DNA from: a virus
Direction: 5' to 3' (one strand)
DNA: 64,000 nt
IMG/VR virus record: IMGVR_UViG_3300045988_085380
Coordinates: 96,001-160,000 of that record
The position numbers and the translations under genes are program-made. Of the stretch, positions 1-45,550 are shown piece by piece (position 1 is the stretch's first letter; each line of letters starts with the position of its first letter). Under the pieces are notes generated by a model, which saw only the letters and a list, made by a program, of their open reading frames with translations, did not search any database and was not told where the DNA came from.

Positions 1-713
1 GTGAGAGCATGGTCTAACTTACTAAAGGTACCATTTAAATAAGTATCTTTAAAACAGGTAATCATAGTTCTACTTCTTTTTATAGTAGTGTATAGTCTAG
101 CTGCAAGAGAAGCATTTATCTCACTAAAGCCAATTGAACGTGCCTTCATTAAAGCAGCATTTTTATGTAATACTCTACACATCTGTAAATAATGAAAGAA
201 CATATATTGAGAAGCAAAGAATACTGGAAAACTTTCATTAGTACCTTCACCTGATGCCTTATCCATATCTACTACTGGTAACTAATAAAAATTTAAGAAG
301 AAATAGTTATCTCCAGTAATAGTGTATCCGTGTGAGGTCATACCATATTTACACCTAGTATATTGTTCTTTCCAAAATGCATCCCATCTTTTACTTCTAG
401 GTAAATAAGAACAATATCTGCCAGTTTTTAGAAATGTTTCTCTAACTTCAGTAAACCATGAAGGATCAAAATCTAAACCATGAGTTTCATCTATAGGTCT
501 ATAACCAGTTAATTCGTAAGATAGAGTAGGATCAAAACATTCTATTTTCATATCCTTAGTAATATCCCAATATGTCTTATCATTAGAACGTTCAATTCTA
601 TACTCATCAACTAATTTCTTAGCTTCTTTAGTATCTTCTTCCTACTATTTCTTTTTTACTTCATCTACAATTAACTAGATTTCATCAGGTAATACTTTCT
701 TCTTTCTAGGCAT
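1..713 (-). CDS. terminase large subunit (TerL)-like, N-terminal part; CDS runs off the left edge; TAG read as sense
   Basis: ATG at 713. The frame is open to nt 1 only if the 4 in-frame TAGs (282, 642, 645, 675) are sense; no in-frame TAA/TGA (checked codon by codon). N-terminal segment ...TITGDNYFFLNFYQLP... recalls TerL N-termini (from memory). Confidence 0.55.
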
Positions 714-718
714 ATCAA

Positions 719-1279
719 TTAAAAATCACCTGGGTCATATCCGGTATTAACTCCACCTCTAGTTGTAGACTCTTGTGATACGGACTCTTTAACTTCTTTC
801 TCTAAAGTAATTAATTGCTCATGGACATTACTTAACTAAGCCATCTCCTTCATTACTTTTTCTGCAGAGAAAATAGGTTTACCATTAATATCTCGTTCAT
901 TTAAATCTACAATAGTTTCAAAATAATCTATAAACTAATCTGCTGCCCTTCGAGCTGCTTCCAATAATTTCACAGATTTATTTGATTCTTGTAATTTCCT
1001 ATATTTTCGACAAGCTTCTCTAAATATAGGGTCATTAAACTAAGCTTCTGTCAAACCACTATCAGCTAAAGCTTCTTCATGTCTTTCCTATTCCAAATAA
1101 TTAGAATAAGGAGACTTCCAATCTAAAGCTAAATAAATGTAAGTGAGTTCTTTCATTACTCTAGTCTTAGTTTTCGTTTTATCTCTATCTAGAAGAGCCT
1201 TAAATTCTCTAATTAAAAGAATCTCAGGCTCATTTAACTCTAGAACAAGATGGTCACTATCATAATTAAATACATTCAT
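719..1279 (-). CDS. hypothetical protein, 186 aa, amber-recoded; possible small terminase by position only
   Basis: ATG 1279 to TAA 719; 4 in-frame TAGs, no TAA/TGA (checked). Lies 5 nt upstream of the TerL start. Confidence 0.6.
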
Positions 1280-1308
1280 AAATCATTAACATTAAACATA
1301 TATTTTAA

Positions 1309-2916
1309 TTATCTCTTCTTTTTATAGTTCCAAGGAGCAACTTTGGCGTCATTCTCACCCTTACCTGCACCTGCTTCTTGTCTATTTCTTCTTTGCATTT
1401 CGGCAATTTCCTTAGCTGATTTACCTCTAGTATAAGGATTTCTCTAATAAGACTGTTTTACAGCATCTTGTTCTTTCTTTTTCTTAAAGTTTTTAATAGG
1501 GTCAGATTTTCCTCCATTTTGCATCTTTTTACCTGCACATACTTTACAGATTTCTCCGCCCTTTTTAAAATATACTACTTCTTGACCTTCAGGACACTCT
1601 CCAATAGACTATTTAATATAATCTAGTTTAGCACCGAGTCTTGCTTTACGAGATCCTTTCATTTGTTGAACAATATTTTTTAATAATTGGGCTACTTGAG
1701 CTGCTTGCTAATCACCTTGTTGTGCTACCTACATAATTTTCTAAATAGTCTATTTAGCTTTCTAATCACCCTACATAGCTGCCTAAACTAAAGCTATTGC
1801 CTACTATTCCATTCCCTATTGTCCACTTGCCTATTGTGGCTGTACCATTTGTGCTCCTGCTGCGTATTTATACATTTGTCCTCCCTTTTCAAATTTTAAA
1901 TTAACTAACTAATTATTCTAACTTGGATTATATCCTAAATTAGGTTTAGTTAATTGATACTAACTAGTCTAATTCTGAACAGCATTATTTAACATATTCT
2001 ACTAGATTTTACCATCCCCTATAATTTTACTCACAGATTGAGTATAGTTATCAGTTGTAGGATTATTTAAATATGTTCTTAACTATTTTCTATCTGACCC
2101 TGAATAATCATAAGGATTTATCCCATTTGCTCTCATGCCCTATCTAATATCACCTCTATCAAAATTATGTTTAGTAAGTTCTGAATAGCTATCTAATGGT
2201 CTACTTTCTAAATAATTAGTGACTGCGTTTCCTAAATTAGGAGCTTTATAATTACCGTTATTAATTAAGGTAGATACATTATGAGAATTAGTTATATCAG
2301 TAGTTGAGCCGTTTGGAGTAGATAAAGTTACACTACCATTTCCAACATGAATGCCATACCCAGGAGTTCCTTTAATAGGAGTTGCTTGCTAAGTTGGTGT
2401 AGATGAATTAAACTAGTTACCTCCTCTTTTACTATAAATATTATTTAAATAACTAGCTAAATCTTTATGTTGAGATAAGTAACTTCCTACTTTACTAAAA
2501 TCTCCTGTCTTATAAGCATTTGCTACATCTGCTTGAGATACTCCATTATAATTCCATATTCCTCTACCCTTATTAATCCATGAATTAGATGCAGGAGTTT
2601 TTGGAGCTGACATGGTTCTTGATCTGCCAGTTGTAGAAGATGTACCGGTACGAGATTTACTTGTAGTAGGAGCTTTGGAATTTTTAGTAGCCTATGGTTT
2701 AGTTACATTAGGTTTCCAATTACTTTGACTATAAGGTCTTATTATATAATTCTGATTTCCCTATGTTTGTTCACTAATTCTATTAAAATCTTTACGAGGA
2801 ATCAATTCATCAGAATGATATAAATCTTTTTCTTTAGTACCCGGAGTATAACTTGTATCTACTAAATCTAATTCAACTCTCGGATACACTGGTGTAGTTC
2901 TCCATTTCCATGCCAT
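1309..2916 (-). CDS. hypothetical Q/N-rich protein, 535 aa, amber-recoded
   Basis: ATG 2916 to TAA 1309; 25 in-frame TAGs and no in-frame TAA/TGA (every codon checked). The standard-code ORF 2413..2613 is an internal fragment. Confidence 0.7.
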
Positions 2917-2979
2917 AATTATACAAGTATTAAATTATTCTAGTTAGTTCTATTTATCTAAGTATTCAATTCTCTCTAG

Positions 2980-3636
2980 TTAATCATGCTCTTCTATTTT
3001 AATTGTTTCATTATTAATCCTGTTTGGATATTTTACATAAAAATAATTTCCAAAATTGGGATTTTTTAATCTCTTCTATATAGTATTATACTTAACTCCT
3101 GTTCTTTCTGAAGCTTCTTTTAAAGAATTATAAATAATCCCATCTATACTGATAATAGAATGGTGAGACATACTCTTTCTTTGTTTAGCTGCCTAAGAAA
3201 GTTTTTCTTTATGTTTTTTTGTTAGCGTTCTCCCTCTTTGTCCTTCACTAATATGTTTAGCGTGCTCTTTTGACTTTTTAACGCCTGTAGTAGTTTTGCT
3301 TATCTTCTACTTTGTTTCTTCCGTGTGGTGATAACCTAAAGTACTACCTGCGGCAGGCAAGATATTATATTCAGGTTCTATAATATTTATCCAATACTGC
3401 TCTCTATCAAACAACTAATCTTTAAGATCTTCTGTAATTTCTAGCTCTTCTAAAATTTCGTAATCAAACTATGTTTCTCCATAATCATTCCATGCTTCCT
3501 AAAATCTATAAGAATGGTGTTTATTCTTTCTTAAAGAATTTAAATGCTATAATCTCCTCCTGTTCAAATCTGAAGAACTTCCAATGTAACAATCGCCTGT
3601 TACAGTATTAACAAACCTATAAATCCCTGCTTTCAT
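2980..3636 (-). CDS. GIY-YIG homing endonuclease (I-TevI-like, NUMOD3 repeats plus C-terminal HTH), amber-recoded
   Basis: Translation MKAGIYRFVNTVTGDCYIGSSSDLNRRRLQH...EQYWI...GYHHTEETKQKIS...GRTLTKKHKEKLS...GIIYNSLKEASERTGVKYNTIQKRL; 7 in-frame TAGs; ends in TAA. Confidence 0.85.
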
Positions 3637-3800
3637 CGTCCTATCTCTCTATTACTATTAATTAGGACCAAATCCTTAGTGTTGAATACTGCTTCCTACA
3701 TTAAACCTGAATCAGTAAACCATCTGCATCTCAATCCTTTCATTTCATCTTTAAATAATGCTTGCTCTTTTCTAATAACAAGCATAGCCGGACAATGCAT
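3633..3800 (-). CDS. small hypothetical ORF (55 aa, one in-frame TAG), ATGA-coupled to the GIY-YIG gene
   Basis: ATG 3800; its TGA overlaps the ATG of the downstream gene (cgATGAaa). No motif; overlaps a hairpin. Confidence 0.3.
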
Positions 3801-3852: not shown

Positions 3853-4458
3853 TTACTTGTTTCCATTACTTTTAATTTGATTCTTTCTTTCTGTTAATTT
3901 CTCATTAACTATTGCCATAATTCGTGATTCATTAACTACTACAAATCCTTGCTTGAAGAATGGAACAGTAGCTTCACTAGCTTTAGTAAAGAATACTACA
4001 TCACCCTCTTTTAAGAACTCACATTTGAATCCAGTTTCAATTACAGTACCAACACGAATAAACTGTTCCAATTCGTGAATTTGACCATCCTCTTCACTCT
4101 TATATTGAGGAGTAAATCCACCTAAGTCAGTAATAATTCCACTTTCTACTGTTATCTTTTGAAAAGGATTTTCATCAAAAGGTTTAATTAATGCATAAGA
4201 ACCCATCGGTAATATCTCTAAACCATTGATGTCTTTTGAGATTTCCTTAGCATAATCTTCAAGTGCCTTATTGTGTTTTTCAAATTTATCTATATATTCA
4301 TCTACTTTAGTATTAAATTTAGATTTCTTCTCATTAGCTAAAATAATATCCGCTCTTTGTCCATTAACTACAATAGGAGTTCCTGTACTTTCCATACCGA
4401 TAAGTGATTGAGCTACTTTCTCTTTTCCATTTAATTCACTTCTAAAATCCATAGTCAT
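3853..4458 (-). CDS. hypothetical protein with GroES/Gp31-like C-terminal domain
   Basis: C-terminal pattern LEILPMGSYALIKPF...ESGIIT...VGTVIETG...LKEGDVVFF...GFVVVNESRIMAIV resembles the Cpn10 fold signature. Confidence 0.4.
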   Translation of the reverse strand: MTMDFRSELNGKEKVAQSLIGMESTGTPIVVNGQRADIILANEKKSKFNTKVDEYIDKFEKHNKALEDYAKEISKDINGLEILPMGSYALIKPFDENPFQKITVESGIITDLGGFTPQYKSEEDGQIHELEQFIRVGTVIETGFKCEFLKEGDVVFFTKASEATVPFFKQGFVVVNESRIMAIVNEKLTERKNQIKSNGNK

Positions 4459-4481
4459 TTACATTTAATTTATGGCAATAA

Positions 4482-4739
4482 TTACCATTTACCTTGTTCA
4501 CAAAATTCATCTTTAATTCTAGTTTTATTATCTAACACACATCCACATAAATCACATAAATCACCAAAGTTAGTATTTAATTTATGGTCACATCTATGAC
4601 ATATATCTAATCTTGTAATAGCTAAATCTTGATGTTTATTCTTAATATTATAATATATGCTTTTTAATATAGTTAATGGCTTAGTTAAAATGCCATGTAA
4701 CCACTTAATTAATATGTTTAATTTCATTCTGCTTCCCAT
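4482..4739 (-). CDS. Cys-rich small protein (zinc-ribbon-like), paralogue of 4724..4945
   Basis: Pattern shared with its neighbour: C..C ... C.LCGCVL..K......C...KW. Confidence 0.55.
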   Translation of the reverse strand: MGSRMKLNILIKWLHGILTKPLTILKSIYYNIKNKHQDLAITRLDICHRCDHKLNTNFGDLCDLCGCVLDNKTRIKDEFCEQGKW

Positions 4740-4945
4740 TTATTACAAGGACAATGTGAGTTTTTATTACTAATCTTAAATTTAAGTACGCATCCGCACC
4801 CCTTTAAATATCCCTTCTTAGGTGTTGTACTTACATCATTATTTTCAGGATTTAAATACAAATGTGCATTACAAATCTCATTTTCTTGGTCACAAATAGG
4901 ACAAGCTCTACATATTTTAGTACGTTTAGTTATATATTCTTCCAT
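4724..4945 (-). CDS. Cys-rich small protein (zinc-ribbon-like), paralogue of 4482..4739
   Basis: CRACPIC...C...GCGCVLKFK...HCPCNKW; 16-nt overlap with the downstream paralogue. Confidence 0.55.
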   Translation of the reverse strand: MEEYITKRTKICRACPICDQENEICNAHLYLNPENNDVSTTPKKGYLKGCGCVLKFKISNKNSHCPCNKWEAE

Positions 4946-5036
4946 ATATTAATTTGTATATTAATTCTTAGTTAATTCCATTATAGTGCTATAAATTAAA
5001 TAAGCTATTAGTAATAATGCTATACATAGTATCATA

Positions 5037-5951
5037 TTAATATTCAATTCGTTTATTCTTTAATCTACGTTCTTGTAGAAGATGTTCCTTTTCATAGTAA
5101 GATAACATACGTTCTACTTCTTTTCTAAGATAAGGTAGATGATAAACAGTCATATTGTCATTATGATCAAAATGTACTAATACTAAGTCTTCTATACTAA
5201 AATCAGGATTATATGATTCAATTATATAAGCATAAGTACTAAGCTGAAGACAATAATGATAATAATTACAATCATCTAAATTATTTAGAGGAAACTTCAT
5301 CTTAACAGAACTTCTTACTTTGGAATCAAAATAGCTCTTAGTATCAATCTTCTTATTCGTTTTCCAGTCTCCGATTATGATAGAATTTCCTTTTTTAACT
5401 AATAAATCAATCTGACCTGCAATATGTAATTTACCAGATGGAGAATCCCAATGAATTAAATACTCAGGATATACTGCATTCTCCAAATCTAAAGTTGTTC
5501 TATCTTTTTGACATTCAAATTTACCTCCTATTTGATATTTATCTAGAGTAATATTCTTTTTCTTGGTGTAAAAGGAATTCTCTAATCCTGCATGTATTTT
5601 AGTACCTCTTTCACAAGACCTTCTATTCTCCTCATCCCAAGAATCTAATATTTCTTGCTGTGCTTTATTAAAATCTAACTCTGTAATATTATGTAACTCT
5701 AACAGAACAGGATCAAATTTCTTAGTATTTAAAAGAGATTTCTTCTCAATCTTAAATTCATCAGCAGGTAATAATTTTTCTAAGGCTTTATACGCTGACC
5801 AAAATTCTTTATCAAATGGCTGACCAAATTGCTCAATCATAGTAGTTACAGAAGTAAACTTAATAGAAGGATCATTAATATCCCAATAACGATGAGCTTT
5901 CTCATTAAAAACTACTGTTCCATTTTGTTTATCAATACTTAAATTTTCCAT
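5037..5951 (-). CDS. PD-(D/E)XK (RecB/Cas4-like) nuclease
   Basis: Motifs GTKIHAGLE, GQIDLLVKKGNSIIIGDWKTNKK, YCLQLSTYAYI (D...D/ExK...QxxxY). Confidence 0.6.
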   Translation of the reverse strand: MENLSIDKQNGTVVFNEKAHRYWDINDPSIKFTSVTTMIEQFGQPFDKEFWSAYKALEKLLPADEFKIEKKSLLNTKKFDPVLLELHNITELDFNKAQQEILDSWDEENRRSCERGTKIHAGLENSFYTKKKNITLDKYQIGGKFECQKDRTTLDLENAVYPEYLIHWDSPSGKLHIAGQIDLLVKKGNSIIIGDWKTNKKIDTKSYFDSKVRSSVKMKFPLNNLDDCNYYHYCLQLSTYAYIIESYNPDFSIEDLVLVHFDHNDNMTVYHLPYLRKEVERMLSYYEKEHLLQERRLKNKRIEY

Positions 5952-6074
5952 ATAACATTAACATTTTACATTTATTTTATATTTATCTAAACTAATTTTT
6001 AACTTTTCAATAATAATATATAATTAGGTGTATAACAAATTAATTAGTAATATAAACTCTTAAATTTAATTAAA

Positions 6075-6791
6075 ATGGAAGATTTAGAAATATTTGGTAT
6101 TCCTTATCTAGCTAAAGGTTCAGGAATACATATTAAAAAGGAAAATAGAGGGAAATTTACTGAGACTAAAAAGAGAACAGGTAAAACTACTGAAGAATTA
6201 ACACATAGTAAAAATCCTCTAACTAGAAAAAGAGCCATATTTGCTTAGAATGCAAAGAAATGGAAACATGAAGATGGTGGTGAAGTACATAAGCCAAATG
6301 GTCATAGATCAATATTAGATAATGGATGGTTTAAAACAAAGGATTTAAAGAATCCTCTTACTTATTAGTAGGGTGGACCTTTTTAGATTAATAACTCATA
6401 GCCTCAAGTGTTATAGAGATATATCTCCTTAGTTAATTAGGGTATTCCACAACAAGCTGCTTTTGATACTTCACATTTATCTATGATAGAAGATGGTAGA
6501 CCTGGAAAATATTATTCATTCGGAAAAAGAGCTTCTAACTTAGGTGGATGGACTAAAAATGCAACTGATAGTCTAACTAATGGAAGATATAAAAATTTAT
6601 AGAATGTCTAGAATTTTGGATAGTTTAAATAGGGATTAAAATAGAAGAACTATAATACAAGACCAGCTTTCTATAATGTAGAAATGAATAGAGGAAGAAA
6701 TAGAGATAAATAGATTATTAATTAGTGGAATAAACAATAGGGTTTAAATCCAATTGCTCAAATATATAATTAGAATATTAACTAGGTATGA
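6075..6791 (+). CDS. hypothetical protein, 238 aa, amber-recoded
   Basis: ATG 6075 to TGA 6789-6791; 17 in-frame TAGs; frame verified across 6360-6440. Confidence 0.65.
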
Positions 6792-6916
6792 AAGATATAA
6801 ATATACAATTGAATGAATTACAAAGATTTTTAGATTTTGTAAATGAGAGAGATAAGCAACTATGGGAAAGATATTTAATTAAATGCACCCAATTAAATGA
6901 CGATATAGAATTATGA
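6788..6916 (+). CDS. small hypothetical protein (42 aa)
   Basis: ATG overlaps the upstream stop (ATGA). Its own stop overlaps the next start. Confidence 0.35.
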   Translation: MKDINIQLNELQRFLDFVNERDKQLWERYLIKCTQLNDDIEL

Positions 6917-7251
6917 AAGTAATCATAAATAATATCTTACCTCCAAAAGGTTTTAAATGTATAAATTTATTTGGTATACTATTCTGTAGAAGAATACTAA
7001 ATAAAATAGATATAAACCATGAAACTATACATACTAAATAGGGATAGGAACTATTGTGGATAGGTTTTTATTTATGGTATATAATAGAATATTTAATTAG
7101 ATTAATTATATACAGAGATACTAAATTAGCTTATAAAAATATCTCTTTTGAAAGAGAAGCTTATTAGAATTAGGGTGATTTAGATTATCTAAGTAATAGA
7201 AAACATTATAGTTGGTTATCTAAGTTAATTAATGAAAGAGTTTTTAATTAA
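6913..7251 (+). CDS. putative small zinc metallopeptidase-like protein (HExxH), amber-recoded
   Basis: ...DINHETIHTKQGQELLW...FEREAYQNQGD...; 4 in-frame TAGs; ends in TAA at 7249. Confidence 0.5.
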
Positions 7252-7441
7252 ATTAGTAACAGCACATACTGGAATAAGTAGTAAAAGAGTATGTGGAATA
7301 TTAGGATGGATAGTTAGTTTAATAATACTTATATACTGTAGTATCCTAACTAAACAAGCACCAGATATGATAGATACAGTTTTATATTGTTGTATGGGAT
7401 TACTAGGTATAGATAGTATAACTAGTATATGGAGAAAATAA
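7232..7441 (+). CDS. small two-TM membrane protein, holin-like
   Basis: 69 aa with two hydrophobic helices (ILGWIVSLIILIYCSIL; VLYCCMGLLGI); follows late genes. Confidence 0.45.
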   Translation: MKEFLIKLVTAHTGISSKRVCGILGWIVSLIILIYCSILTKQAPDMIDTVLYCCMGLLGIDSITSIWRK

Positions 7442-7470
7442 CTAATTATAGTAATTAATAGATACAATAA

Positions 7471-7502
7471 AAGGCGGCTTAGCTTAATTGCTAGGTCGCC
7501 TT
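7471..7502. terminator. bidirectional hairpin between convergent genes
   Basis: AAGGCG...CGCCTT stem with an inner GCTTAGC/GCTAGGT stem; sits between the 7441(+) and 7528(-) gene ends. Confidence 0.6.
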
Positions 7503-7527
7503 AAATATTTTATATTTATAAATTAAA

Positions 7528-7713
7528 TTAGTACCGTACCGATTGTTTATTTAATTCATCTAGATAATTAAGAAACCATTGCTTATCTTTAAATGGTTTT
7601 GCTAGTACTTTATCTACTGTGTCTTCTGCTTTATTTAAAGACAGCATAGCATTTCTATTTAAATAGTCTTCGTAAATATTATAATTTTTAGTCAACTTGT
7701 TCATAACCTTCAT
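7528..7713 (-). CDS. hypothetical protein
   Basis: Intact ORF in the minus-strand gene train. Confidence 0.5.
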   Translation of the reverse strand: MKVMNKLTKNYNIYEDYLNRNAMLSLNKAEDTVDKVLAKPFKDKQWFLNYLDELNKQSVRY

Positions 7714-8008
7714 TTATTATTCTTATATCATTATCATATATACTAGTGTGTGTATAACCAGTTTGCCTATTGACATAATGATGTAAAATTACACTACTAG
7801 TATCATCTACATTATCATCTATTACATAGTTCTTTTTAATTATGTAATCTAAATAATTCTCAGCCTCTTTTAAATCCCCCTCATAATCCTCTTGGAAAAG
7901 AATTTGTATTTTACTATCTAATTTAGACTTTTTCAACTTTTTAAGTTTCTTTTCTAAATTGGTTGTTTTTAAAAGCTTGTCATTTAGTTTATAAATTGCA
8001 ATAATCAT
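7688..8008 (-). CDS. hypothetical protein
   Basis: Intact ORF 26 nt downstream of the suppressor tRNA. Confidence 0.55.
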   Translation of the reverse strand: MIIAIYKLNDKLLKTTNLEKKLKKLKKSKLDSKIQILFQEDYEGDLKEAENYLDYIIKKNYVIDDNVDDTSSVILHHYVNRQTGYTHTSIYDNDIRIINEGYEQVD

Positions 8009-8034
8009 AATACATATCTTTTATAATTAAATTG

Positions 8035-8106
8035 TTCTCTCACAAGGATTCGAACCCTGACTAAAAGATTTAGAGTCTTCTGTGCTAACCATTACACCAT
8101 AAGAGA
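8035..8106 (-). tRNA. amber suppressor tRNA, anticodon CUA, Gln-type body
   Basis: Cloverleaf TCTCTTA-TG-GTGT-AATGGTTA-GCAC-A-GAAGA-CTCTAAA-TCTTT-TAGT-CAGGG-TTCGAAT-CCTTG-TGAGAGA-A. D-arm and T-loop match the phage tRNA-Gln(UUG) at 18775. Confidence 0.85.
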
Positions 8107-8150
8107 ATATTAGCTAGTTATCAAAACTAGCTAAATGTGTATTTAAGTTA

Positions 8151-8549
8151 TTAGTTAAATTTAACTAATTGCTCATTTAAGTATTTAGTTTTATCTGTAA
8201 TGAATTGTCGTGCATGCGCTTTAAAATAAGAAACAGCAGAACGTACAGATTCAATATTTTCTGAATCCAAACAATTCTGAATTCTTTGTAAACCATCATT
8301 ACCAATCTTCTCACAAATGTCTACAAATAATTCATCATCCAAACCATTTAGAAAATCTGTAAACTTCTCTACTTCAGATTGTACTGGATTGGTGTATTTA
8401 ACACTAAGTTCAAAACCATTATCTGAACTATTCATTGAAATATCTAAACCATTTTTATTAAATTTATAATCTTTATTATTTTCAGAAGCTTTCATAAGCT
8501 CTTGAAATTCTTCATTTGTCATTATTCCTTCTAATAAGTTTTCAACCAT
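8151..8549 (-). CDS. hypothetical protein
   Basis: Intact 132-aa ORF; first gene of the minus-strand unit. Confidence 0.55.
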   Translation of the reverse strand: MVENLLEGIMTNEEFQELMKASENNKDYKFNKNGLDISMNSSDNGFELSVKYTNPVQSEVEKFTDFLNGLDDELFVDICEKIGNDGLQRIQNCLDSENIESVRSAVSYFKAHARQFITDKTKYLNEQLVKFN

Positions 8550-8689
8550 ATTAATTAATATTTTAAATTTGTTTTAATTTAGTTCTTTTTTTAATTACAT
8601 TCTACAATAGATTAATTGTTGAAAATATAAAAGTTAAAATAATTTAAAATGCTAATTCTAACATAATATCAGTATTTTATACTAAAGCA

Positions 8690-8942
8690 AAGATGGGGGG
8701 ATAGGTATTACTTATGAAAAATTCACATAGTGATCGTAGCATGGGCTCACTACTCGTTTTAGCCCCCCTGGGCATCGAGTAGGAAAATAAATATTAAAAT
8801 AGCCAGTTATTAGCAACTATTAAAACATAGATATAAATAATTATATCGAATCTGAGCACGTCAAGCTCGTCTGGGGCAGCTGTCAGAGCACCTCATCGTC
8901 GGTCACGCATTCAGTCTGACCTTAAACTACTGAATGATTTTT
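8690..8942 (+). ncRNA. candidate structured RNA (pseudoknot plus terminator-like hairpin); strand uncertain
   Basis: GGGGGG 8695-8700 pairs with CCCCCC 8763-8768, interleaved with CTACTCG 8750-56 / CGAGTAG 8776-82. CATTCAGT 8908-15 pairs with ACTGAATG 8928-35 and is followed by a T-run. GC-rich and ORF-free. Confidence 0.3.
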
Positions 8943-9021
8943 CCCATTTCCAAGAAAATAGGATAGTCTCGTCTACTCCGAAAGAGTGGTCGGCGTAATG
9001 TTGCGCCTAATTCTGATTTAT

Positions 9022-9534
9022 ATGGCTACAGTAATCGTAAACAATGACTCTAAGGTACAGGTTGCAAATGGTGGTGAGAATATGCGTCTCAGAAATTCTA
9101 TGTCCATCGACAACTTGTTGGTGGCATTTCCAGATGGTCTCCCTACAGACTTTATGCTCAAATTCCATAACGATTTGCGCTATCAGCGAAATAGAACAGA
9201 GTGGAGCGATAAGTGCTATTGTGGTCTTGTCCCATTTTACAATGGAGTTGAGCATATAGAGTTCGCAATGCTCCAATGGGACTTGTTGGTCGAGGACATT
9301 GCAACCGTGAATGCTAATGGTGAGTTCGCTGGGTTTGTTACACCTAACGATGAACTACATACTTATGCTCGTTCCACAGCTTCTGCCGACATCACGATAG
9401 AAGCTTGGTTACAAGGAGTTGCAAAGCACTTCAATGATAATGCAAAGGATTACAAGTTCACTAAGCTGAGCTACCTCTGCAAATACGAGAGTCGCTTATA
9501 CACTCGTGTTCTGCTTGGCATTGTCAAGAAGTAA
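9022..9534 (+). CDS. hypothetical protein
   Basis: ATG 9022 preferred over the GTG at 8986; higher-GC ORF; followed by a terminator. Confidence 0.6.
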   Translation: MATVIVNNDSKVQVANGGENMRLRNSMSIDNLLVAFPDGLPTDFMLKFHNDLRYQRNRTEWSDKCYCGLVPFYNGVEHIEFAMLQWDLLVEDIATVNANGEFAGFVTPNDELHTYARSTASADITIEAWLQGVAKHFNDNAKDYKFTKLSYLCKYESRLYTRVLLGIVKK

Positions 9535-11943: not shown

Positions 11944-12446
11944 GCGGATAACACAATCGAGACGGAGACAAGGTGGCGCTGGCATGGGAGAGTGGTTTTT
12001 ACTACTTTCCCATTACAAGTCAATTTTCAAACATTGGTGGCATAAGTAACTCACACTTTAATGTTTTCTTGAGATATAAACTATAGTCATAATTAAATCA
12101 GAATTAAAAACCTTTTAGTGTATAGGTTAACTAATAATATGATGTAACTTCAAAATTAAAAAACCACCTTAGTATATAGCTAAATAGTAGAACGGGTGTT
12201 TATCCTTTTATAGGTTTGTACTAGGCAGTATTTAGCGCGTCGTAACACATTGAAAGTATTACTGGTAGAACTAAAGTATTAAAAAGACTTTAGAAGTAAG
12301 AAAGCGTAAAGACAGTTAGTAGAGGGGATAGTAAGTGTTGAAGAACTCTACATTATTTATTAAGCAATAACCTCGGTGCTTAAAGAGAGGCTTCCCTTAA
12401 ACAAGGAGTAAGAGAAATTGTTTAGTCAGCCAGGAGACGTTAAAAT

Positions 12447-12507
12447 TCATACTGATGAGACTGGACGAAATACCTAGTAACAGTTGTACGTTATTAGGTA
12501 TCTATGA
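12447..12507 (+). ncRNA. hammerhead-like core (type I topology) with defective stem II
   Basis: TCATA-CTGATGA-GACTGGAC-GAAA-TACCTA...TAGGTA-TC-TATGA. Stems I and III pair; stem II cannot form. Confidence 0.2.
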
Positions 12508-17269: not shown

Positions 17270-17871
17270 TTTCTTCAAAGATAAGTTTAGTGGATAACTA
17301 GAGTATTATTTAGGATGTACTATTTAATATATCTAGCACTCAAAGTCCACTAAACTTTCTTACTTAAATTGATATTTATGTTAGTTATATTGATACTCTC
17401 CTCTTAGAGGAAGTATAGGACATTATCTATCTAATCTATCAGCTGTGAAGAGTTGATTGGAAGAGAAGTTTAGTTTCAAAATATTGCGCAACTCCCATTA
17501 AATGGGATTAATATGAAACAATTACTAGTTAAGATAGCTAATTAATTAGTAAGCTGTAATCAATATAACCTTTTAAATATAGTGATAGAAGCAGGGGTTC
17601 GAATCCTTTAATTTTTGTAATTAGTTAGCTATCTAATTATGGAGATTTCGTCTAAATTTGGGAAGCAACGGGAGAAAAATGATTCTCTTAGTGCCTCACG
17701 TATGTAGAGTTTCTACAATCACCAGCCATGATGTGAGAGGACGCTATCACTTTAATTTGAATTTATTGTATTTAATCATATTTTGTTAGTGTGTTATGCC
17801 TATTTGGGCAAAGTTCTTACCACTATTCTACTTATAGAAATGTGGTGTGTCTAAGTAAATCTTAGACATAT

Positions 17872-17948: not shown

Positions 17949-18038
17949 ATACGGATGCCTGAGTGGTCGAAAGGGTAGGTCTCCAAAACCTATAGAGACG
18001 AAAGTTGAACAGCGTAGGTTCGAATCCTACTCCGTGTG
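17949..18038 (+). tRNA. class II (long variable arm) tRNA with anticodon CCA; isotype uncertain
   Basis: ATACGGA-TG-CCTG-AGTGGTCGA-AAGG-G-TAGGT-CTCCAAA-ACCTA-(21-nt variable region)-GTAGG-TTCGAAT-CCTAC-TCCGTGT-G. Confidence 0.6.
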
Positions 18039-18253
18039 CAAATAAAAGGTGAAGTTGGGGTATCTTAGGATAGAATGAGCCTATAAGTCTTCAATGAGTC
18101 TAGTTAAATAAACTAGGCTCTACTCCCTGGCGTCATTTAAATCAGCTCTCTAAGCTTTAAGGTGAAGCACGAACCTTTTAAGTTCGGGAAGACAGGTCAG
18201 TACTGTCAGGAAGCACTCTGTATTTTATAAAAGTTAGAAGATTAACTTTATAA

Positions 18254-18774: not shown

Positions 18775-18845
18775 TGGACTATGGTGTAATGGTAGCACTA
18801 CAGATTTTGGTTCTGTCAGTCCCAGTTCGAATCTGGGTAGTCCAA
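18775..18845 (+). tRNA. tRNA-Gln(UUG)
   Basis: TGGACTA-TG-GTGT-AATGGTA-GCAC-T-ACAGA-TTTTGGT-TCTGT-CAGT-CCCAG-TTCGAAT-CTGGG-TAGTCCA-A. Confidence 0.9.
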
Positions 18846-19010
18846 CAATTAAAATAGGTACTAAACAACTCTCAGTAACTCTATTAAATAGCGTAATTAC
18901 CTTAAAATTAATCATTTGGGTTAGAAAGAGAAAGAACGTTAGATAGCTGAGGACAATGGAATAGTTTAAATATAACCAGTGAAAATCGCCTATTATTTAA
19001 ATAGATTATT

Positions 19011-20868: not shown

Positions 20869-20953
20869 TAATTTATTTGTAATTTCTATGTCATAGACTT
20901 ATAATAAATAAGTGATTAATCAATTAAAAATAATAACTTAAATATTAATATTT

Positions 20954-22015
20954 ATGACAGGAAATTTTGAAAATAGTTATCTTGGAAACATTATTGGAGT
21001 ACAAAGATAGAAAATGAAGGATTTTACTAATTCGAGATTAAAAAAGGTAAAATAGATGAATTAGAGAGCTACATAGGGTTCTAAATAGCTTTAGATTAGA
21101 AGAAAACAGCAAAATAATTATGATGCCAGATTAAGAGCTAAATATGGTGCTATGTATGACCCTAACAAAGTTCGTCAATAGCAGTAGGAATTAGTTAAAG
21201 CTGGTTATAATATTGCAGTAGATGGAGATTGGGGTGTAAAAAGTAAATAGGCATGGCATGATTATTAGTTAAAAAAGAATTAGTAGACTACCAAAGATAC
21301 CGATATGTTTACTAGTTTAACTAATTGGATTAATAAGTTTAAGCCAAAACCTTATCCATTATCTACTAACAAGAATGAATAGGCTATTATAGACCGTAAA
21401 GTACATAGCGGTGTTACTGAACCTTATTGGATACTAGATAGAAATAATCATCAATTAAAACACATGCAAGGAAACAAAGCCTTAGCACAATTTGATGTTA
21501 TGACAGGTTTATCCAATGACTAGGATGGATATAATTTTTGGGATAGTTATAAAACTGATCCAGTATACTAGAAAAATAAAAACTTTTATAATGGAAGTAA
21601 ACAAGCCTAGGTAACACCTGCTGGTATTTTTACTTTATCTTCTTCTAGTTATGAAGGACGCCCAGCATTTAGATGGAATGAGGGAAGTAGAGATAATACA
21701 AACACTAAGTAGAAAACTTCTGTTTTATTTCATATTATGCCTAAGAGCAGATAGGCTGATTTTAAAAATGGAATTAGAAATAAATCTTATGGTTGTGTTA
21801 ATTTGCCTACAGATGCACTTAACTATATGATAAATAATAACGCAGTAGGAGATTCTATATATTCTCTGCCTGTTAGATAGGGTAATTATATATATGAGTC
21901 TGAGGAAGAAGGACATCCATTAAAAGTACATTATGGAAATGCTCCTCAAAGAGTTTAGGGAAAACATTATGCAAATAAATATGATTTAAATTTAAATTAT
22001 AATAAAGGATATTAA
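20954..22015 (+). CDS. PG-binding plus L,D-transpeptidase (YkuD)-like cell-wall enzyme, amber-recoded (20 in-frame TAGs)
   Basis: ELVKAGYNIAVDGDWGVKSKQAWHDYQ (PG_binding_1-like) and TPAGIF...FHIMP...KSYGCVNLPTDALNYM...GDSIY (YkuD His/Cys motif). ATG 20954, TAA 22013; 354 codons. Confidence 0.75.
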
Positions 22016-35070: not shown

Positions 35071-35697
35071 ATGATTAATTTAAGTAAAGGTGGCAGAATC
35101 AATCTGTCTAAAGAGTCTAACAATGGTTTAAGTAAATTGTTCTTTGGTTCAAACTGGGGTGCCATTCAGCATCGTGGACTGCTTGGCATTGGTAGGTCTA
35201 TTGAGAAAGTAGATTTGGATTCTACTGTTCTTCTGTATGACACCAATAAGAATTGTATTGGTGAAGTAGCTTATTACAATTTAAGTGCTCCAGGTATTCG
35301 TCATAGTGGTGATGATCGCTCAGGTGATACTAATGGTAATGATGGTCTTGATAATGAGACTATTGAAGTACGTCTGAATGAGCTTGACCCACGTGTTGAG
35401 TATATTGCATTTACTCTCAATAACTTTACACATCAGACATTTGGTGAGATTCCTTATATGGGTCTTCGTATTTACACAGGTGACCAAGTACAGAGAAACA
35501 CTAATACTCCTGTAAATGTCTTAGCTAAGTTTAATCTTGAAGACGGTAAGGAAGGTACCAAGATTTCTGATAAGCAGGCGGTTATTCTTGGTATTGCCTA
35601 TAAGAAGGATGGTGAATGGCGCTTTAAGGCAGTTGGTGAGTTTGGAGGTTGGACTTCAATTGATGCTATGAAGCGTCCAACAATTGCATTTCTTTAA
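35071..35697 (+). CDS. TerD-domain protein (divergent second copy)
   Basis: MINLSKGGRINLSK...HSGDDRSGDTNGNDGLDNETIEV...GEWRFKAVGE. Confidence 0.8.
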   Translation: MINLSKGGRINLSKESNNGLSKLFFGSNWGAIQHRGLLGIGRSIEKVDLDSTVLLYDTNKNCIGEVAYYNLSAPGIRHSGDDRSGDTNGNDGLDNETIEVRLNELDPRVEYIAFTLNNFTHQTFGEIPYMGLRIYTGDQVQRNTNTPVNVLAKFNLEDGKEGTKISDKQAVILGIAYKKDGEWRFKAVGEFGGWTSIDAMKRPTIAFL

Positions 35698-35718: not shown

Positions 35719-38178
35719 ATGACAGATATAAATTACGGTCTTAGCTTAACAGAAGTAGAAGATTCACGTGCTAGACATGGTATTAATGTATTGACACCTC
35801 CAAAGAGGGATGCTTGGTATGTAATGTTACTTGATGGATTTAAAGATCCACTTATTGTAATATTACTTATTGCAGCTGCAGTATCTATCGCCTTGGGTTT
35901 TGTAAAGGGTGAATTTACAGAGCCTATTGGTATTATTGTAGCTATTGCTTTAGCTGTAGGTATTGGTTTTTGGAATACTTGGTCAGCAGCTAAGAAGTTT
36001 GACCTTCTTTTAACTAGTAGTGATGATACTCTAGTTAAGGTAAGACGAGATAATGGAGTAATTCAAGTAGCTCGTAAAGACTTAGTTGTAGGAGATATTG
36101 TAATACTTGAAGCTGGTGAAGAAGTTCCTGCTGATATTATTATTAAGGAATATAGCAATTTGAAAGTAAGTGAGGCTTCTTTAACTGGAGAAACAAATCC
36201 TGTAACTAAAACTAATTTTGAATCAGAAACTGCTACCTATCCTACAAATAGAATTTATAAAAGCACTATTGTGGCTGAAGGTACTTGTGTAGGTGAAGTA
36301 TTTGCAGTAGGAGATGAAACAGAAGTAGGTAAGACTGCTAGAGAAGCATCTTCTATTACTGATGTAGAAACACCTCTTAATAAACAGCTTAATGGATTAG
36401 CTAGCTTAATTAATAAGATAGCATTCACAGCTGCAGGTATTCTTATTGTATCTCTTGCTATACGTTATATATTTATAGAGCAGGGATATGTAGGCAAAGA
36501 TACTATTGATATTGTAAATGATTGCTTACAATTCTTAATGATTGCAGTAGCCCTTATTGTAGTAGCAGTACCAGAGGGTTTACCTATGGCTGTAACTCTT
36601 GCTCTTGCCTATTCTATGAAGAGAATGGCTAAAGCTAACAATCTTATTAGAAAGATGCATGCTTGTGAAACTCTTGGTGCTACAACTCTTATTCTTACTG
36701 ATAAGACAGGAACTCTTACAGAGAATAAAATGAAAGTAGTATTCCAGGACTTTACAGACAGAAATGCTGTTATAAATAATATTGTACTTAATTCTACTGC
36801 TAATCTTAGTCCTGTAGGAGAAGTAGTAGGAAATCCTACAGAAGGTGCTTGTTTGCAATATATACAAAAATCAGTTGATATTACTGATAAAAGAAATAAA
36901 ACTCATATAACAGATAGAGTAGAATTTAATTCTAAGAATAAATATATGATTACTAGCGATGGAGTAGTTACTTATATTAAGGGAGCTCCAGAAATAGTAA
37001 TGAATTTCTGCTCTAATGAGAAAATACCTAATTTTGTAGAACAACAATCTAAAGGCAGAAGATGTATAGCTTTTACTCACAAGGTTGGTTCTGATATAAA
37101 TACTCTCTCAGACTTCATATGGGATGGCTACGTAGCTATCGAAGACCCGGTGAGAAGTAATGTACCTGATGCAATTCAGGCTGCTAGAAACGCTGGAATT
37201 AAAGTTAAGATTGTGACAGGTGATAATCCTGAAACAGCCGCCTCTATTGCTGCTCAAGCTAATATCTCTCAAATTCCTAACACAATGCTTGGTAAGGAAG
37301 TTAAAACTCAAACAGATACTAATTTACGTAAAGTAGATGTATTTGCTAGAACTAAACCTGAAGACAAGCAGACACTTGTTAAGAGATTCCAGAATATGGG
37401 AGAAGTAGTAGCTGTAACTGGTGATGGTACAAATGATTCAGCTGCTCTTAACCAAGCTGAGGTGGGTGTAGCTATGAATAATGGTACTGATATTGCTAAG
37501 AATGCAGCTGATGTTATTCTTCTTGATAATTCGTTCCCTTCTGTTATCTTAGGAGTTAAGTGGGGAAGAAGCTTGTATAAGAATATTCAGCACTTTATTC
37601 TCTTCCAGCTTACTGTAAATGTTGTAGCTATTGGTATTGCTTGTGTAGGTCCATTTATTGGAGTAGACTTACCATTTACTGTTATCCAAATGCTATGGGT
37701 TAACTTAATTATGGATACTTTTGCTGCTTTAGCATTAGCCACAGAACCAGCTAATGAAGCAGTAATGTCTGAACAGCCTCGTGATCCTAAGGCATTTATT
37801 ATTACAAAGAGAATGTGGTATGAAATCTTTGGCGTAGGTATTTTGTATTTTGGCATATTATTATATTTGCTAATTAGTAATACATATAGCCTTACAGAGT
37901 TCTTCACTATCTTTGTTATGCTGCAATTCTGGAACTTGTTTAATGCAAGAGTATTTGGACAAGACAGAAGTATCTTTAACGGTTTGTTAAGTAATCCTGC
38001 ATTTATTGGAATATGTTTGGTTATATTTATTGGTCAAATTTTGATAGTTCAATTTGGTGGCGATGTATTCAGAACAGAACCATTAAGTATTGAAACATGG
38101 TTAGAAATTGTAGGTCTTACTGCAATTGTACCAGTTTGTAGAGAACTCCTATATTGGATTAAAAAGTTATTTAAGTAA
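35719..38178 (+). CDS. P-type (type II, Ca2+-transporting-like) ATPase
   Basis: TGET (A domain), VPEGLP (M4), DKTGTLT, TGDN, GDGTNDSAAL; about 10 TM segments. Confidence 0.9.
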   Translation: MTDINYGLSLTEVEDSRARHGINVLTPPKRDAWYVMLLDGFKDPLIVILLIAAAVSIALGFVKGEFTEPIGIIVAIALAVGIGFWNTWSAAKKFDLLLTSSDDTLVKVRRDNGVIQVARKDLVVGDIVILEAGEEVPADIIIKEYSNLKVSEASLTGETNPVTKTNFESETATYPTNRIYKSTIVAEGTCVGEVFAVGDETEVGKTAREASSITDVETPLNKQLNGLASLINKIAFTAAGILIVSLAIRYIFIEQGYVGKDTIDIVNDCLQFLMIAVALIVVAVPEGLPMAVTLALAYSMKRMAKANNLIRKMHACETLGATTLILTDKTGTLTENKMKVVFQDFTDRNAVINNIVLNSTANLSPVGEVVGNPTEGACLQYIQKSVDITDKRNKTHITDRVEFNSKNKYMITSDGVVTYIKGAPEIVMNFCSNEKIPNFVEQQSKGRRCIAFTHKVGSDINTLSDFIWDGYVAIEDPVRSNVPDAIQAARNAGIKVKIVTGDNPETAASIAAQANISQIPNTMLGKEVKTQTDTNLRKVDVFARTKPEDKQTLVKRFQNMGEVVAVTGDGTNDSAALNQAEVGVAMNNGTDIAKNAADVILLDNSFPSVILGVKWGRSLYKNIQHFILFQLTVNVVAIGIACVGPFIGVDLPFTVIQMLWVNLIMDTFAALALATEPANEAVMSEQPRDPKAFIITKRMWYEIFGVGILYFGILLYLLISNTYSLTEFFTIFVMLQFWNLFNARVFGQDRSIFNGLLSNPAFIGICLVIFIGQILIVQFGGDVFRTEPLSIETWLEIVGLTAIVPVCRELLYWIKKLFK

Positions 38179-44546: not shown

Positions 44547-44774
44547 ATGGAAACCCCAAAATTCTTGAGAAAGTATAAATTGGTTTTTAAAGTTATTAAA
44601 TATGTCATTGGTTTTATAGCTATGATGTACTTAATAAGTATGTGTACTTATTTAATTAGTAGTGAGAGTACATTTTGTTGCATTATGGGTATACTAATAT
44701 TAGCAACTATTGCTGTGTTAGTAGTTACCCTAATTTCCGAAAATATTAATAAATTAAAAAGTTTATTTAAATGA
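44547..44774 (+). CDS. small membrane protein
   Basis: Two TM helices. Confidence 0.5.
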   Translation: METPKFLRKYKLVFKVIKYVIGFIAMMYLISMCTYLISSESTFCCIMGILILATIAVLVVTLISENINKLKSLFK

Positions 44775-45550
44775 GAAAAGTCTTTTTATTTGCGAGTGCT
44801 TTAATGTTGTCATTAAGTTTCACTAGTTGTGAACGTATTGATGCTGGTTGCGAAGGTATCTTAGTTAATCTCTATGGCTCTGAAAGAGGTGTAGATGATG
44901 TATCTATGGTAACTGGACGAGTATTCTATAACCCAGCTACTCAGGAAGTATATGAGTATCCTACTTATGTTCAGACTATTGACTATGAACCATTTACAAT
45001 TAATGCTAAGGATGGTTCTGAATTTAAAGTTGATCCAAATGTCAATCTTAAAGTTAAGGACGGTGCCGCTCCAAAGGTATTTCGTAAGTATCGCAAAGAA
45101 TTAACTGATGTAATTAATGGTCCCGTATTTAAGTATGTAAAGGATGCTTGCCGTATTGAGATTAATAAATTTACTACAGACCAGATTGTGTCAAATCGTG
45201 AAGCTGTAGAACAGGCAATTGAGAAGCGTCTTTCTAAACTTCTTGATAAGGAAGGATTTGTGCTTGACCAGTTTACTAGTGGTTTGCAATATCCTAAGAC
45301 TATTGTAGATGCTGTAGATGCTAAGAATAGAGCTATTCAGTTGGCACAGAAAGCAGCCAATGAGGTGCAAGTAGCTGAGGCAGAAGCAAAGAAGAAGATT
45401 GTAGTAGCTGAAGCAGAAGCTAAAGCTAATGCCATTGTGAATGCTTCTCTTACACCATTACTTCTTAAGAAGCAGTGGATTGAAAAATGGTCTGGAGATC
45501 TTCCTAAGGTTACTGGTAATTCATCAACATTAGTAGGACTTGATAAATAA
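44771..45550 (+). CDS. SPFH/band-7 (prohibitin-like) lipoprotein
   Basis: Lipobox LSFTSC; SPFH-like core; AEAEAKKKIVVAEAEAKANAI tail. Confidence 0.7.
   Translation: MRKVFLFASALMLSLSFTSCERIDAGCEGILVNLYGSERGVDDVSMVTGRVFYNPATQEVYEYPTYVQTIDYEPFTINAKDGSEFKVDPNVNLKVKDGAAPKVFRKYRKELTDVINGPVFKYVKDACRIEINKFTTDQIVSNREAVEQAIEKRLSKLLDKEGFVLDQFTSGLQYPKTIVDAVDAKNRAIQLAQKAANEVQVAEAEAKKKIVVAEAEAKANAIVNASLTPLLLKKQWIEKWSGDLPKVTGNSSTLVGLDK

Follow-up and report, generated by a model that had tools for sequence, protein, structure and literature searches.

A probable Gln-type suppressor tRNA(CUA) and TAG-recoded late genes in a crAss-like phage

We analysed a 64,000-nucleotide stretch of a viral genome (hereafter the window) with a focus on a tRNA gene on its minus strand. 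ARAGORN, which called 13 tRNAs and one tmRNA in the window, placed this tRNA at 8034-8106 (-) with the anticodon cta at position 34, and Rfam RF00005 matched it over its full length at 8035-8106 (-) (63.5 bits against a gathering score of 29, E = 1.9e-11). The initial annotation had described a minus-strand 72-nt cloverleaf with anticodon CUA at 8035-8106. Both programs bore this out, with ARAGORN returning the same anticodon, and the quoted D-arm, variable loop, T-loop and anticodon loop agree with the sequence, so that the observation is confirmed. The gene reads TCTCTTA TG GTGT AATGGTTA GCAC A GAAGA CTCTAAA TCTTT in its first half and TAGT CAGGG TTCGAAT CCTTG TGAGAGA A in its second, and does not encode CCA; its 7-nt anticodon loop (C32 U33 C34 U35 A36 A37 A38) carries CUA at 34-36, as in an amber suppressor. 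When 12 distinct CUA relatives and two Gln(UUG) tRNAs were aligned, the cloverleaf was paired in 99.7% of the alignment cells, compensatory (two-sided) changes were present at 13 of 21 pairs, and none of 500 shuffles matched this level of covariation; pairing fell to 44-56% in slid registers. The tRNA is therefore real and under purifying selection, a canonical CUA cloverleaf that belongs to the tRNA class (RF00005) by both its above-threshold full-length match and its covariation-backed fold. Its single-sequence fold energy was no better than that of shuffles (z = -0.42). In view of the covariance-model score and the covariation, this is nothing out of the ordinary for an AT-rich tRNA.

The tRNA sits in a small minus-strand unit located at a strand-composition switch. 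Its conserved upstream partner is s132 (8151-8549, -), a 132-aa acidic ORF; s106 (7688-8008, -) starts 27 nt downstream of the tRNA, and s61 (7528-7713, -) is the last gene of the unit. All three ORFs are TAG-free in the window, and their proteins had no match in PHROG, Pfam or PDB. A 13-bp GC-rich bidirectional terminator-like hairpin (7471-7502) marks the boundary with a convergent cassette of g6051, g6901 and g7232 (6075-7441, +), whose families have the highest TAG share of Gln codons and whose read-through ORFs (plus strand, 6051-7251) hold 17 and 4 TAGs. Gene g6051 has 17 TAG against 5 CAA/CAG; g6901, with an HExxH motif and a match to PHROG 15610 'protease' (3.7e-46), has 4 TAG against 0 CAA/CAG; and g7232 encodes a small membrane protein. 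TAG-free genes for a GroES-like co-chaperonin and a PD-(D/E)XK-type exonuclease (Exo) (3853-5951, -) lie between the tRNA unit and a TAG-recoded late block (1-3651, -), which comprises the TerL N-terminus (4 TAG; PHROG 6681, 5.8e-17), g719 (4), g1309 (25) and a GIY-YIG endonuclease gene (7-8; Pfam, 2e-7). The last of these (2980-3651, -) is homing-endonuclease-like and presumably mobile, and TAG makes up 7 of its 10 Gln codons, which suggests that it has adapted to the late code of the phage.

The plus strand from 8.9 to 64 kb is mostly TAG-free and encodes DnaB-like and SF2 helicases, NrdD, an AAA ATPase, a P-type ATPase, TerD and SPFH; the replication and host-takeover genes have no in-frame TAGs. 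Within this standard-code block, a YkuD L,D-transpeptidase/peptidoglycan-binding gene with endolysin-like PHROG matches (20954-22015, +; read-through ORF 20942-22015) forms a TAG island with 20 in-frame TAGs. The P-type cation-transporting ATPase (35719-38178, +; 819 aa; E1-E2 ATPase, 6.5e-39), the TerD-domain protein that precedes it (35071-35697) and the SPFH/Band 7 protein further on (44771-45550) are unusual phage cargo. The window also contains a RAGATH-1 hammerhead ribozyme (12423-12507, +; 70.6 bits against a gathering score of 56.3) and the tmRNA (30716-31049, +; tag peptide GEVNNTSVSYAIAA; ARAGORN, and Rfam 50.4 bits against 47), which deserves note alongside stop-codon reassignment. 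Another tRNA (17949-18039, +; 91 nt) has the anticodon CCA (Trp), a class-II-like D-arm and a variable region of ~20 nt, and is 74% similar to an annotated tRNA-Ser of phage C48C1, with 96% similarity to a human-gut phage contig that lacks annotation; a Trp anticodon on a Ser/Leu-type body would be unusual.

[quoted passage not shown] Across relatives, TAG made up 36-63% of the Gln codons in each late, packaging or lysis-type family (g6051, 0.63; g7232, 0.57; g6901, 0.54; TerL, 0.45; g719, 0.43; g1309, 0.36), and single genes of the window held up to 25 TAGs. For the families around the tRNA, TAG occurred in 0 of 61 relatives for Exo, 2 of 62 for GroES, 0 of 16 for s106 and 1 of 19 for s61, and in 26 of 43 for s132. 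Naive ORF totals per reassigned stop codon were uninformative in AT-rich DNA and were replaced by gene-level and ortholog tests.

For the amino-acid test, every TAG of the window was masked as X and compared by tblastn with 98 loci from relatives. At identities of at least 90%, all 12 exchanges between TAG and a sense codon were with Q, and over all identity bands the residues aligned to TAG were Q (145; CAA 94, CAG 51), E (66), R (43) and K (39). The likelihood was best for Q by 163 nats from raw counts and by 12 nats with each site counted once, the substitution profiles being taken from the same alignments. Most of the aligned Gln codons are CAA, two steps from TAG, which argues that the signal is not merely mutational proximity. 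In ortholog comparison, TAG thus behaves as Gln, exchanging with both CAA and CAG. The genome shows the pattern of code 15, with in-frame TAGs in conserved genes, aligned to Gln and limited to late and lysis genes.

TAG terminates eight standard-code ORFs, six of which are followed by a TAA at a distance of 0-4 codons. To the next in-frame stop, the median number of codons was 2.5 after TAG-terminated, 8 after TAA-terminated and 5 after TGA-terminated ORFs, an enrichment of backup stops that is marginal (one-sided Mann-Whitney, p = 0.04) and weakly consistent with TAG changing its meaning during infection; the nearby TAA would limit read-through tails on some of these genes. The two most distant TerL relatives fetched (L097 and L098, 43-52%) have no in-frame TAG and 2-4 in-frame TGA codons in TerL, which indicates code switching (TGA recoding) within the wider group.

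We further compared the body of the suppressor with cellular tRNAs. We scanned a genome collection for its D-arm in combination with a Gln anticodon and obtained at least 120 loci, many of them from Bacteroidales. Among the 154 tRNAs of the fetched cellular loci, all 121 carriers of the D-arm motif were tRNA-Gln and none of the 33 other tRNAs had it, a count in which the Gln set shares the motif by selection, the loci having been retrieved by D-arm motif and Gln anticodon. The suppressor carries this Gln D-arm, GGUGUAAUGG(N1-2)AGCAC, with G10; a D-arm almost identical to it also occurs in one phage tRNA-Arg(UCU). Outside the anticodon, the suppressor and cellular tRNA-Gln had a median identity of 0.69 and a maximum of 0.80, whereas other isotypes reached at most 0.58; the Gln side of this comparison likewise shares the motif through its retrieval. 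Measured over fixed structural segments, it was 72-79% for the top 15 cellular tRNA-Gln, the identifiable ones being Bacteroidales-type, and 61% for the phage's own tRNA-Gln(UUG). The suppressor also has the weak U1:A72 pair and the discriminator A73, found in 97 and 78 of 106 cellular tRNA-Gln, respectively. The identity set of E. coli GlnRS consists of G2:C71, G3:C70, G73, U35 and G36, of which the suppressor keeps U35 alone, having C2:G71, U3:A70, A73 and A36. Natural tRNA-Gln with the suppressor-type D-arm have C:G at 2:71 in 14 of 106 cases and U:A at 3:70 in 37 of 106; since these pairs and A73 occur in natural tRNA-Gln, the E. coli rule set is not directly transferable.

Phage tRNAs gave a less distinct picture. 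In phage tRNA panels the Gln margin was thin (0.61 against 0.58 for Arg in L004; 0.66 against 0.63 for Met), and blastn against annotated phages returned mixed labels, namely many tRNA-Gln, the coliphage tRNA-Arg(UCU) and some tRNA-Trp. The tRNA-Arg(UCU), from Escherichia phage phAPEC8 (L014, 297-371) and ~60 related coliphage records, matched the suppressor at 87% over positions 5-65, with 75-87% of the body shared; it appears to be a Gln-type body, Gln-like D-arm included, that was re-used for another isotype. A vote by blastn nearest neighbours was thus ambiguous, and the isotype was settled by the A20/U20 difference, the cellular tRNA-Gln comparisons and the codon evidence. The D-loop reads GGATA in the Arg look-alike and GGTTA in the suppressor, the differing base (A and U, respectively) lying at what we take to be position 20, and A20 is a determinant for ArgRS. 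RefSeq labels the orthologs in cr7_1 and cr53_1 as tRNA-Gln, and both are in fact CUA suppressors. The Gln isotype is accordingly a probable one, drawn mainly from the comparison with cellular tRNAs and from codon evidence.

The alternative that the tRNA inserts another residue (Trp, Arg, Lys, Glu, Tyr or pyrrolysine), or is a relic while a host factor decodes TAG, would account for the ARAGORN label Pyl, the likeness of the body to phage tRNA-Arg(UCU) and some tRNA-Trp, and acceptor pairs 2:71 and 3:70 unlike the E. coli GlnRS identity set. The Pyl label, however, merely reflects the anticodon CUA. The fold of pylT lacks G18G19 and T-psi-C and has a 3-nt variable loop and a 6-bp anticodon stem, and the system includes pylS and pylBCD genes; the suppressor, in contrast, is a canonical cloverleaf with G18G19 in its D-loop, a TTCGAAT T-loop, a 4-nt variable loop and a 5-bp anticodon stem, and none of the 20 largest ORFs of the window is an aminoacyl-tRNA synthetase. 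Q gives the best fit to the ortholog columns, whereas W, Y and R fit poorly, the presumed position 20 is U rather than the A of the Arg look-alike, and the compensatory changes mark a tRNA kept by selection, which argues against a relic. We therefore regard this alternative as highly improbable and retain the Gln-type suppressor, a claim of the initial annotation that is upheld by the Gln-type body, the TAG-recoded genome and the Gln-like behaviour of TAG.

The phage's own tRNA-Gln(UUG) (18775-18846, +; ARAGORN, Rfam) is host-like (Bacteroidales-type). Its likeness to the suppressor had been remarked on at the outset and holds for the D-arm and T-loop, with the D-loop of Gln(UUG) one base shorter. 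The further proposal, that the suppressor arose recently by duplication of this gene followed by anticodon mutation, did not stand. Both tRNAs do share the D-arm (bar the one D-loop base), the T-loop, U1:A72 and A73, a Gln-to-suppressor conversion is also apparent at a second suppressor locus of relatives, and one-step conversions of this kind are reported in other crAss-like phages (PMC7886860). Yet the shared D-arm and T-loop are generic features of tRNA-Gln, and outside the anticodon the identity between the two is 61-66%, with the acceptor, anticodon and T stems all different. The suppressor is nearer to distant crAss-like CUA tRNAs and to cellular Bacteroidales tRNA-Gln (up to 0.80): with the anticodon excluded, it is 94-99% identical to the copies of its own clade and 74-84% to the CUA tRNAs of other crAss-like clades (Suoliviridae genomes, cr7_1 and cr53_1 included). 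Its position, 5-9 kb upstream of TerL in TAG-recoded relatives, is kept down to ~67% TerL identity, within the conserved order s132, tRNA, small ORFs, opposite-strand cassette, Exo, GroES, g1309, g719 and TerL. The same flank of two TGA-recoded relatives contained no suppressor tRNA. A recent duplication therefore has very little probability. From these identities and the conserved position, we infer that the suppressor belongs to an old lineage common to crAss-like phages, either inherited vertically or exchanged repeatedly; the distances obtained here already favour a placement apart from the clade that holds the phage's own Gln(UUG).

The anticodon loop has been remodelled beyond position 36, with C32, A37 and A38 in place of the U32, G37 and U38 of the phage's own Gln(UUG), which are also the prevailing bases in cellular tRNA-Gln. 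All 55 distinct viral CUA tRNAs have A or C at position 38, where 59 of 97 sense UUG tRNAs have U; C32 and A37 were imposed by the viral CUA search pattern and were seen independently in tRNAs found by synteny. The difference of C32 and A36-A37-A38 from sense Gln is that expected for efficient reading of a codon that starts with U. In one clade of relatives (L056, L059, L062 and L066), the syntenic CUA tRNA, also Gln-type, has an insertion of ~19 nt in the variable region (AGCCCTCTGAAGGCGTAAG), giving a long extra arm.

Relatives L035-L089 carry the second suppressor tRNA, unrelated to the first and absent from the window, 2.4-3.4 kb beyond the CUA tRNA on the opposite strand (for example L035 2100, L045 707 and L044 116; L005 1470-1540). 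Its body is near-identical among contigs while the anticodon varies, being CUA in some, UUA (ochre) in others and CUG (normal Gln) in L044. The TerL genes of the UUA-bearing contigs have no in-frame TAA and so give no sign of TAA recoding.

A perfect 10-bp stem-loop (TTAGCTAGTT-ttgat-AACTAGCTAA; 8110-8134, -), ending 3 nt before the 5' end of the suppressor, is the longest perfect hairpin in the window and scored as terminator-like on both strands. Its candidate roles are a leader processing or stability signal, or an attenuator. Positional analogues of unrelated sequence precede the CUA tRNA in cr7_1, cr53_1, L062 and L066, and others precede the second suppressor of the sister clade. In a viral sample, such a stem was present before 21 of 64 stand-alone CUA tRNAs (33%) and 5 of 74 sense UUG tRNAs (7%) (Fisher, p = 1.3e-4), two sets that come from different phage groups, which confounds the comparison. 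The stems comprised 10 distinct sequences, and across crAss-like lineages, with at least 10 unrelated stem sequences, the stem-loop ends 2-6 nt before the tRNA 5' end. Hairpins of this kind stand before suppressor and stand-alone tRNAs in many crAss-like contigs, among them stand-alone tRNA-Arg(UCU) genes in relatives, and another perfect stem-loop (17848-17868, +) ends 3 nt before tRNA-Phe, which opens the tRNA run at 17.9-18.8 kb. Two functions proposed for the 5' hairpin were set aside: a Bacteroides-type -7 box (TAGTTTTG) in the loop, read as a promoter, is not conserved in relatives with other loops, and an intrinsic terminator is a weak proposal, other lineages having no T-run after the stem.

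At the 3' side, Rfam gave no ribozyme match at E <= 1 in 6800-9200, and the 27 nt between the tRNA and the next ORF hold no such element, unlike the theta (minimal HDV-like) ribozyme-tRNA units of gut phages (Kienbeck 2024, PMC10879173). Two relatives with 97% TerL identity, L023 (2489-2544) and L090, have an insert of ~56 nt exactly at the 3' end of the suppressor tRNA, where the likeness to theta units lies in HDV-like matches below the Rfam threshold (CPEB3, 23.8 bits; HDV-F-prausnitzii, 23.6 bits) and in plausible helices P1 (AAUAGC/GCUAUU) and P2 (GUAGAA/UUCUAC). This theta-ribozyme-like candidate is present or absent between near-identical phages, the equivalent site in the window being 8008-8034. 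It is a rather remote conjecture that maturation of the suppressor tRNA, besides its transcription, may be a regulated step of the code switch; if true, the 5' stem-loop and the 3' HDV-like ribozyme polymorphism would form a processing or attenuation module that times the functional suppressor tRNA.

The placement of the unit bears on when the tRNA might be expressed. The initial annotation had described the unit (8549 to 7528) as free of internal TAG, separate from the recoded genes and fitting expression before the late genes. The first point is true of the three ORFs in the window and fails in the sister clade, in which the s132 homologs that immediately precede the tRNA contain 1-4 in-frame TAGs beyond the start codon. 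The separation is likewise partial: the unit is TAG-free here, but it shares its strand with the TerL late block and stops 87 nt short of the convergent cassette, where TAG usage is highest. In the clade of the window, early expression is plausible; conservation lends it no support, since s132 is recoded in the sister clade, and timing is not readable from sequence. Matches to sigma-70-type promoters around the unit showed no excess (11 against 12.1 in shuffles).

The position of the suppressor at the head of the late block and on its strand, the recoded s132 upstream of it in the sister clade, the terminator-like hairpin immediately before it and the Zeta crAss-like phages on record with Sup(CUA) but no recoding (PMC12386605) would suit expression together with the late genes or constitutively, in which case recoding would not time the late and lysis genes, or a tRNA whose main benefit would be to disturb host translation or defence. 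We consider this unlikely, if clearly less so than the alternatives on origin and amino acid. The whole tRNA unit and the next two minus-strand genes (Exo and GroES) are TAG-free in the clade of the window, and with essential late genes so rich in TAG, decoding is indispensable whatever other roles the tRNA has. The TAG share also peaks in lysis-type genes, the YkuD island in the early block included, as in the lysis-timing model (10.1101/2021.08.26.457843).

Taken together, the locus very probably encodes a Gln-type amber-suppressor tRNA of an old crAss-like Sup(CUA) lineage that serves TAG-recoded late genes. The tRNA would be transcribed with or just after the s132 gene and matured by host RNase P, 3' trimming and the addition of CCA, which would be needed since none is encoded. 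Host GlnRS probably charges it with Gln, given the Gln-specific D-arm with G10, U1:A72, A73 and the retained U35; CUA anticodons are known substrates of GlnRS in E. coli. The charged tRNA would then out-compete RF1 at UAG, and the recoded late and lysis genes would become translatable only after the suppressor had accumulated. Against this reading, the 2:71 and 3:70 pairs are not those of the E. coli GlnRS identity set, and up to 25 TAGs per gene would need near-complete suppression, for which one tRNA in competition with RF1 may fall short; the 20 largest ORFs of the window included neither a release factor nor an aminoacyl-tRNA synthetase.

Single-mutation suppressors are known from cellular genes: E. 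coli supE (glnV, CUG to CUA) and supB (glnU, UUG to UUA) are weak suppressors. They share with the phage tRNA a Gln body with a stop-reading anticodon, and in E. coli they are charged by GlnRS through U35 and body determinants. The phage tRNA differs in being a dedicated gene with a remodelled loop (C32, A37, A38) that must support up to 25 TAGs per gene, and it is the CUA/UUA/CUG series at the second locus of relatives that mirrors supE and supB exactly. The closest counterparts among the crAss-like phages are cr7_1 (NC_055895; Suoliviridae, Burzaovirus) and cr53_1 (NC_055889; Blohavirus), TAG-recoded genomes with 74-79% identical Sup(CUA) tRNAs that have the same CUCUAA loop, Gln-type D-arm, T-loop, U1, A73 and 72-nt cloverleaf and a stem-loop just upstream. 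They differ from the window in the acceptor stem (G2:C71 and C3:G70 against C2:G71 and U3:A70), in the neighbours of the tRNA (a dUTPase and a tail gene in cr7_1; directly upstream of TerL in cr53_1) and in genome size (~100 kb, against ~185-190 kb for the relatives of the window). A crAss-like family with genomes of 145-192 kb has been described (PMC7886860), a range that spans these relatives, and the window would belong to it.

The finding is correct and already known as an instance of a published TAG-to-Gln suppressor system. In crAss-like phages, TAG is reassigned to Gln mostly in late genes (Yutin 2021, PMC7886860), code 15 has been validated by mass spectrometry (Peters 2022, PMC9523058), Sup(CTA) has been catalogued in the Zeta group (PMC12386605), and a model of late-gene and lysis timing presumes charging by host GlnRS (Borges 2021 preprint, 10.1101/2021.08.26.457843). 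Like other code-15 gut phages (crAss-like Beta, Delta and Zeta; Lak and others), the window combines a phage-encoded suppressor with recoded late and lysis genes and standard replication genes, and its lysis-type genes also prefer TAG. Nothing categorical sets it apart; its TAG-rich lysis-type genes are split between the tRNA-adjacent cassette and the island in the early block. It is thus one further example, without a new principle, of the model in which a phage suppressor tRNA gates the translation of late and lysis genes. It adds the modest refinements that the suppressor is of an old shared lineage and not a recent duplicate, and that its TAG-free neighbourhood is not conserved. For this code-15 crAss-like phage, gene calls made with the standard code would break up TerL, g1309 and the YkuD gene, among others, and the late genes need translation with TAG = Gln for correct annotation.
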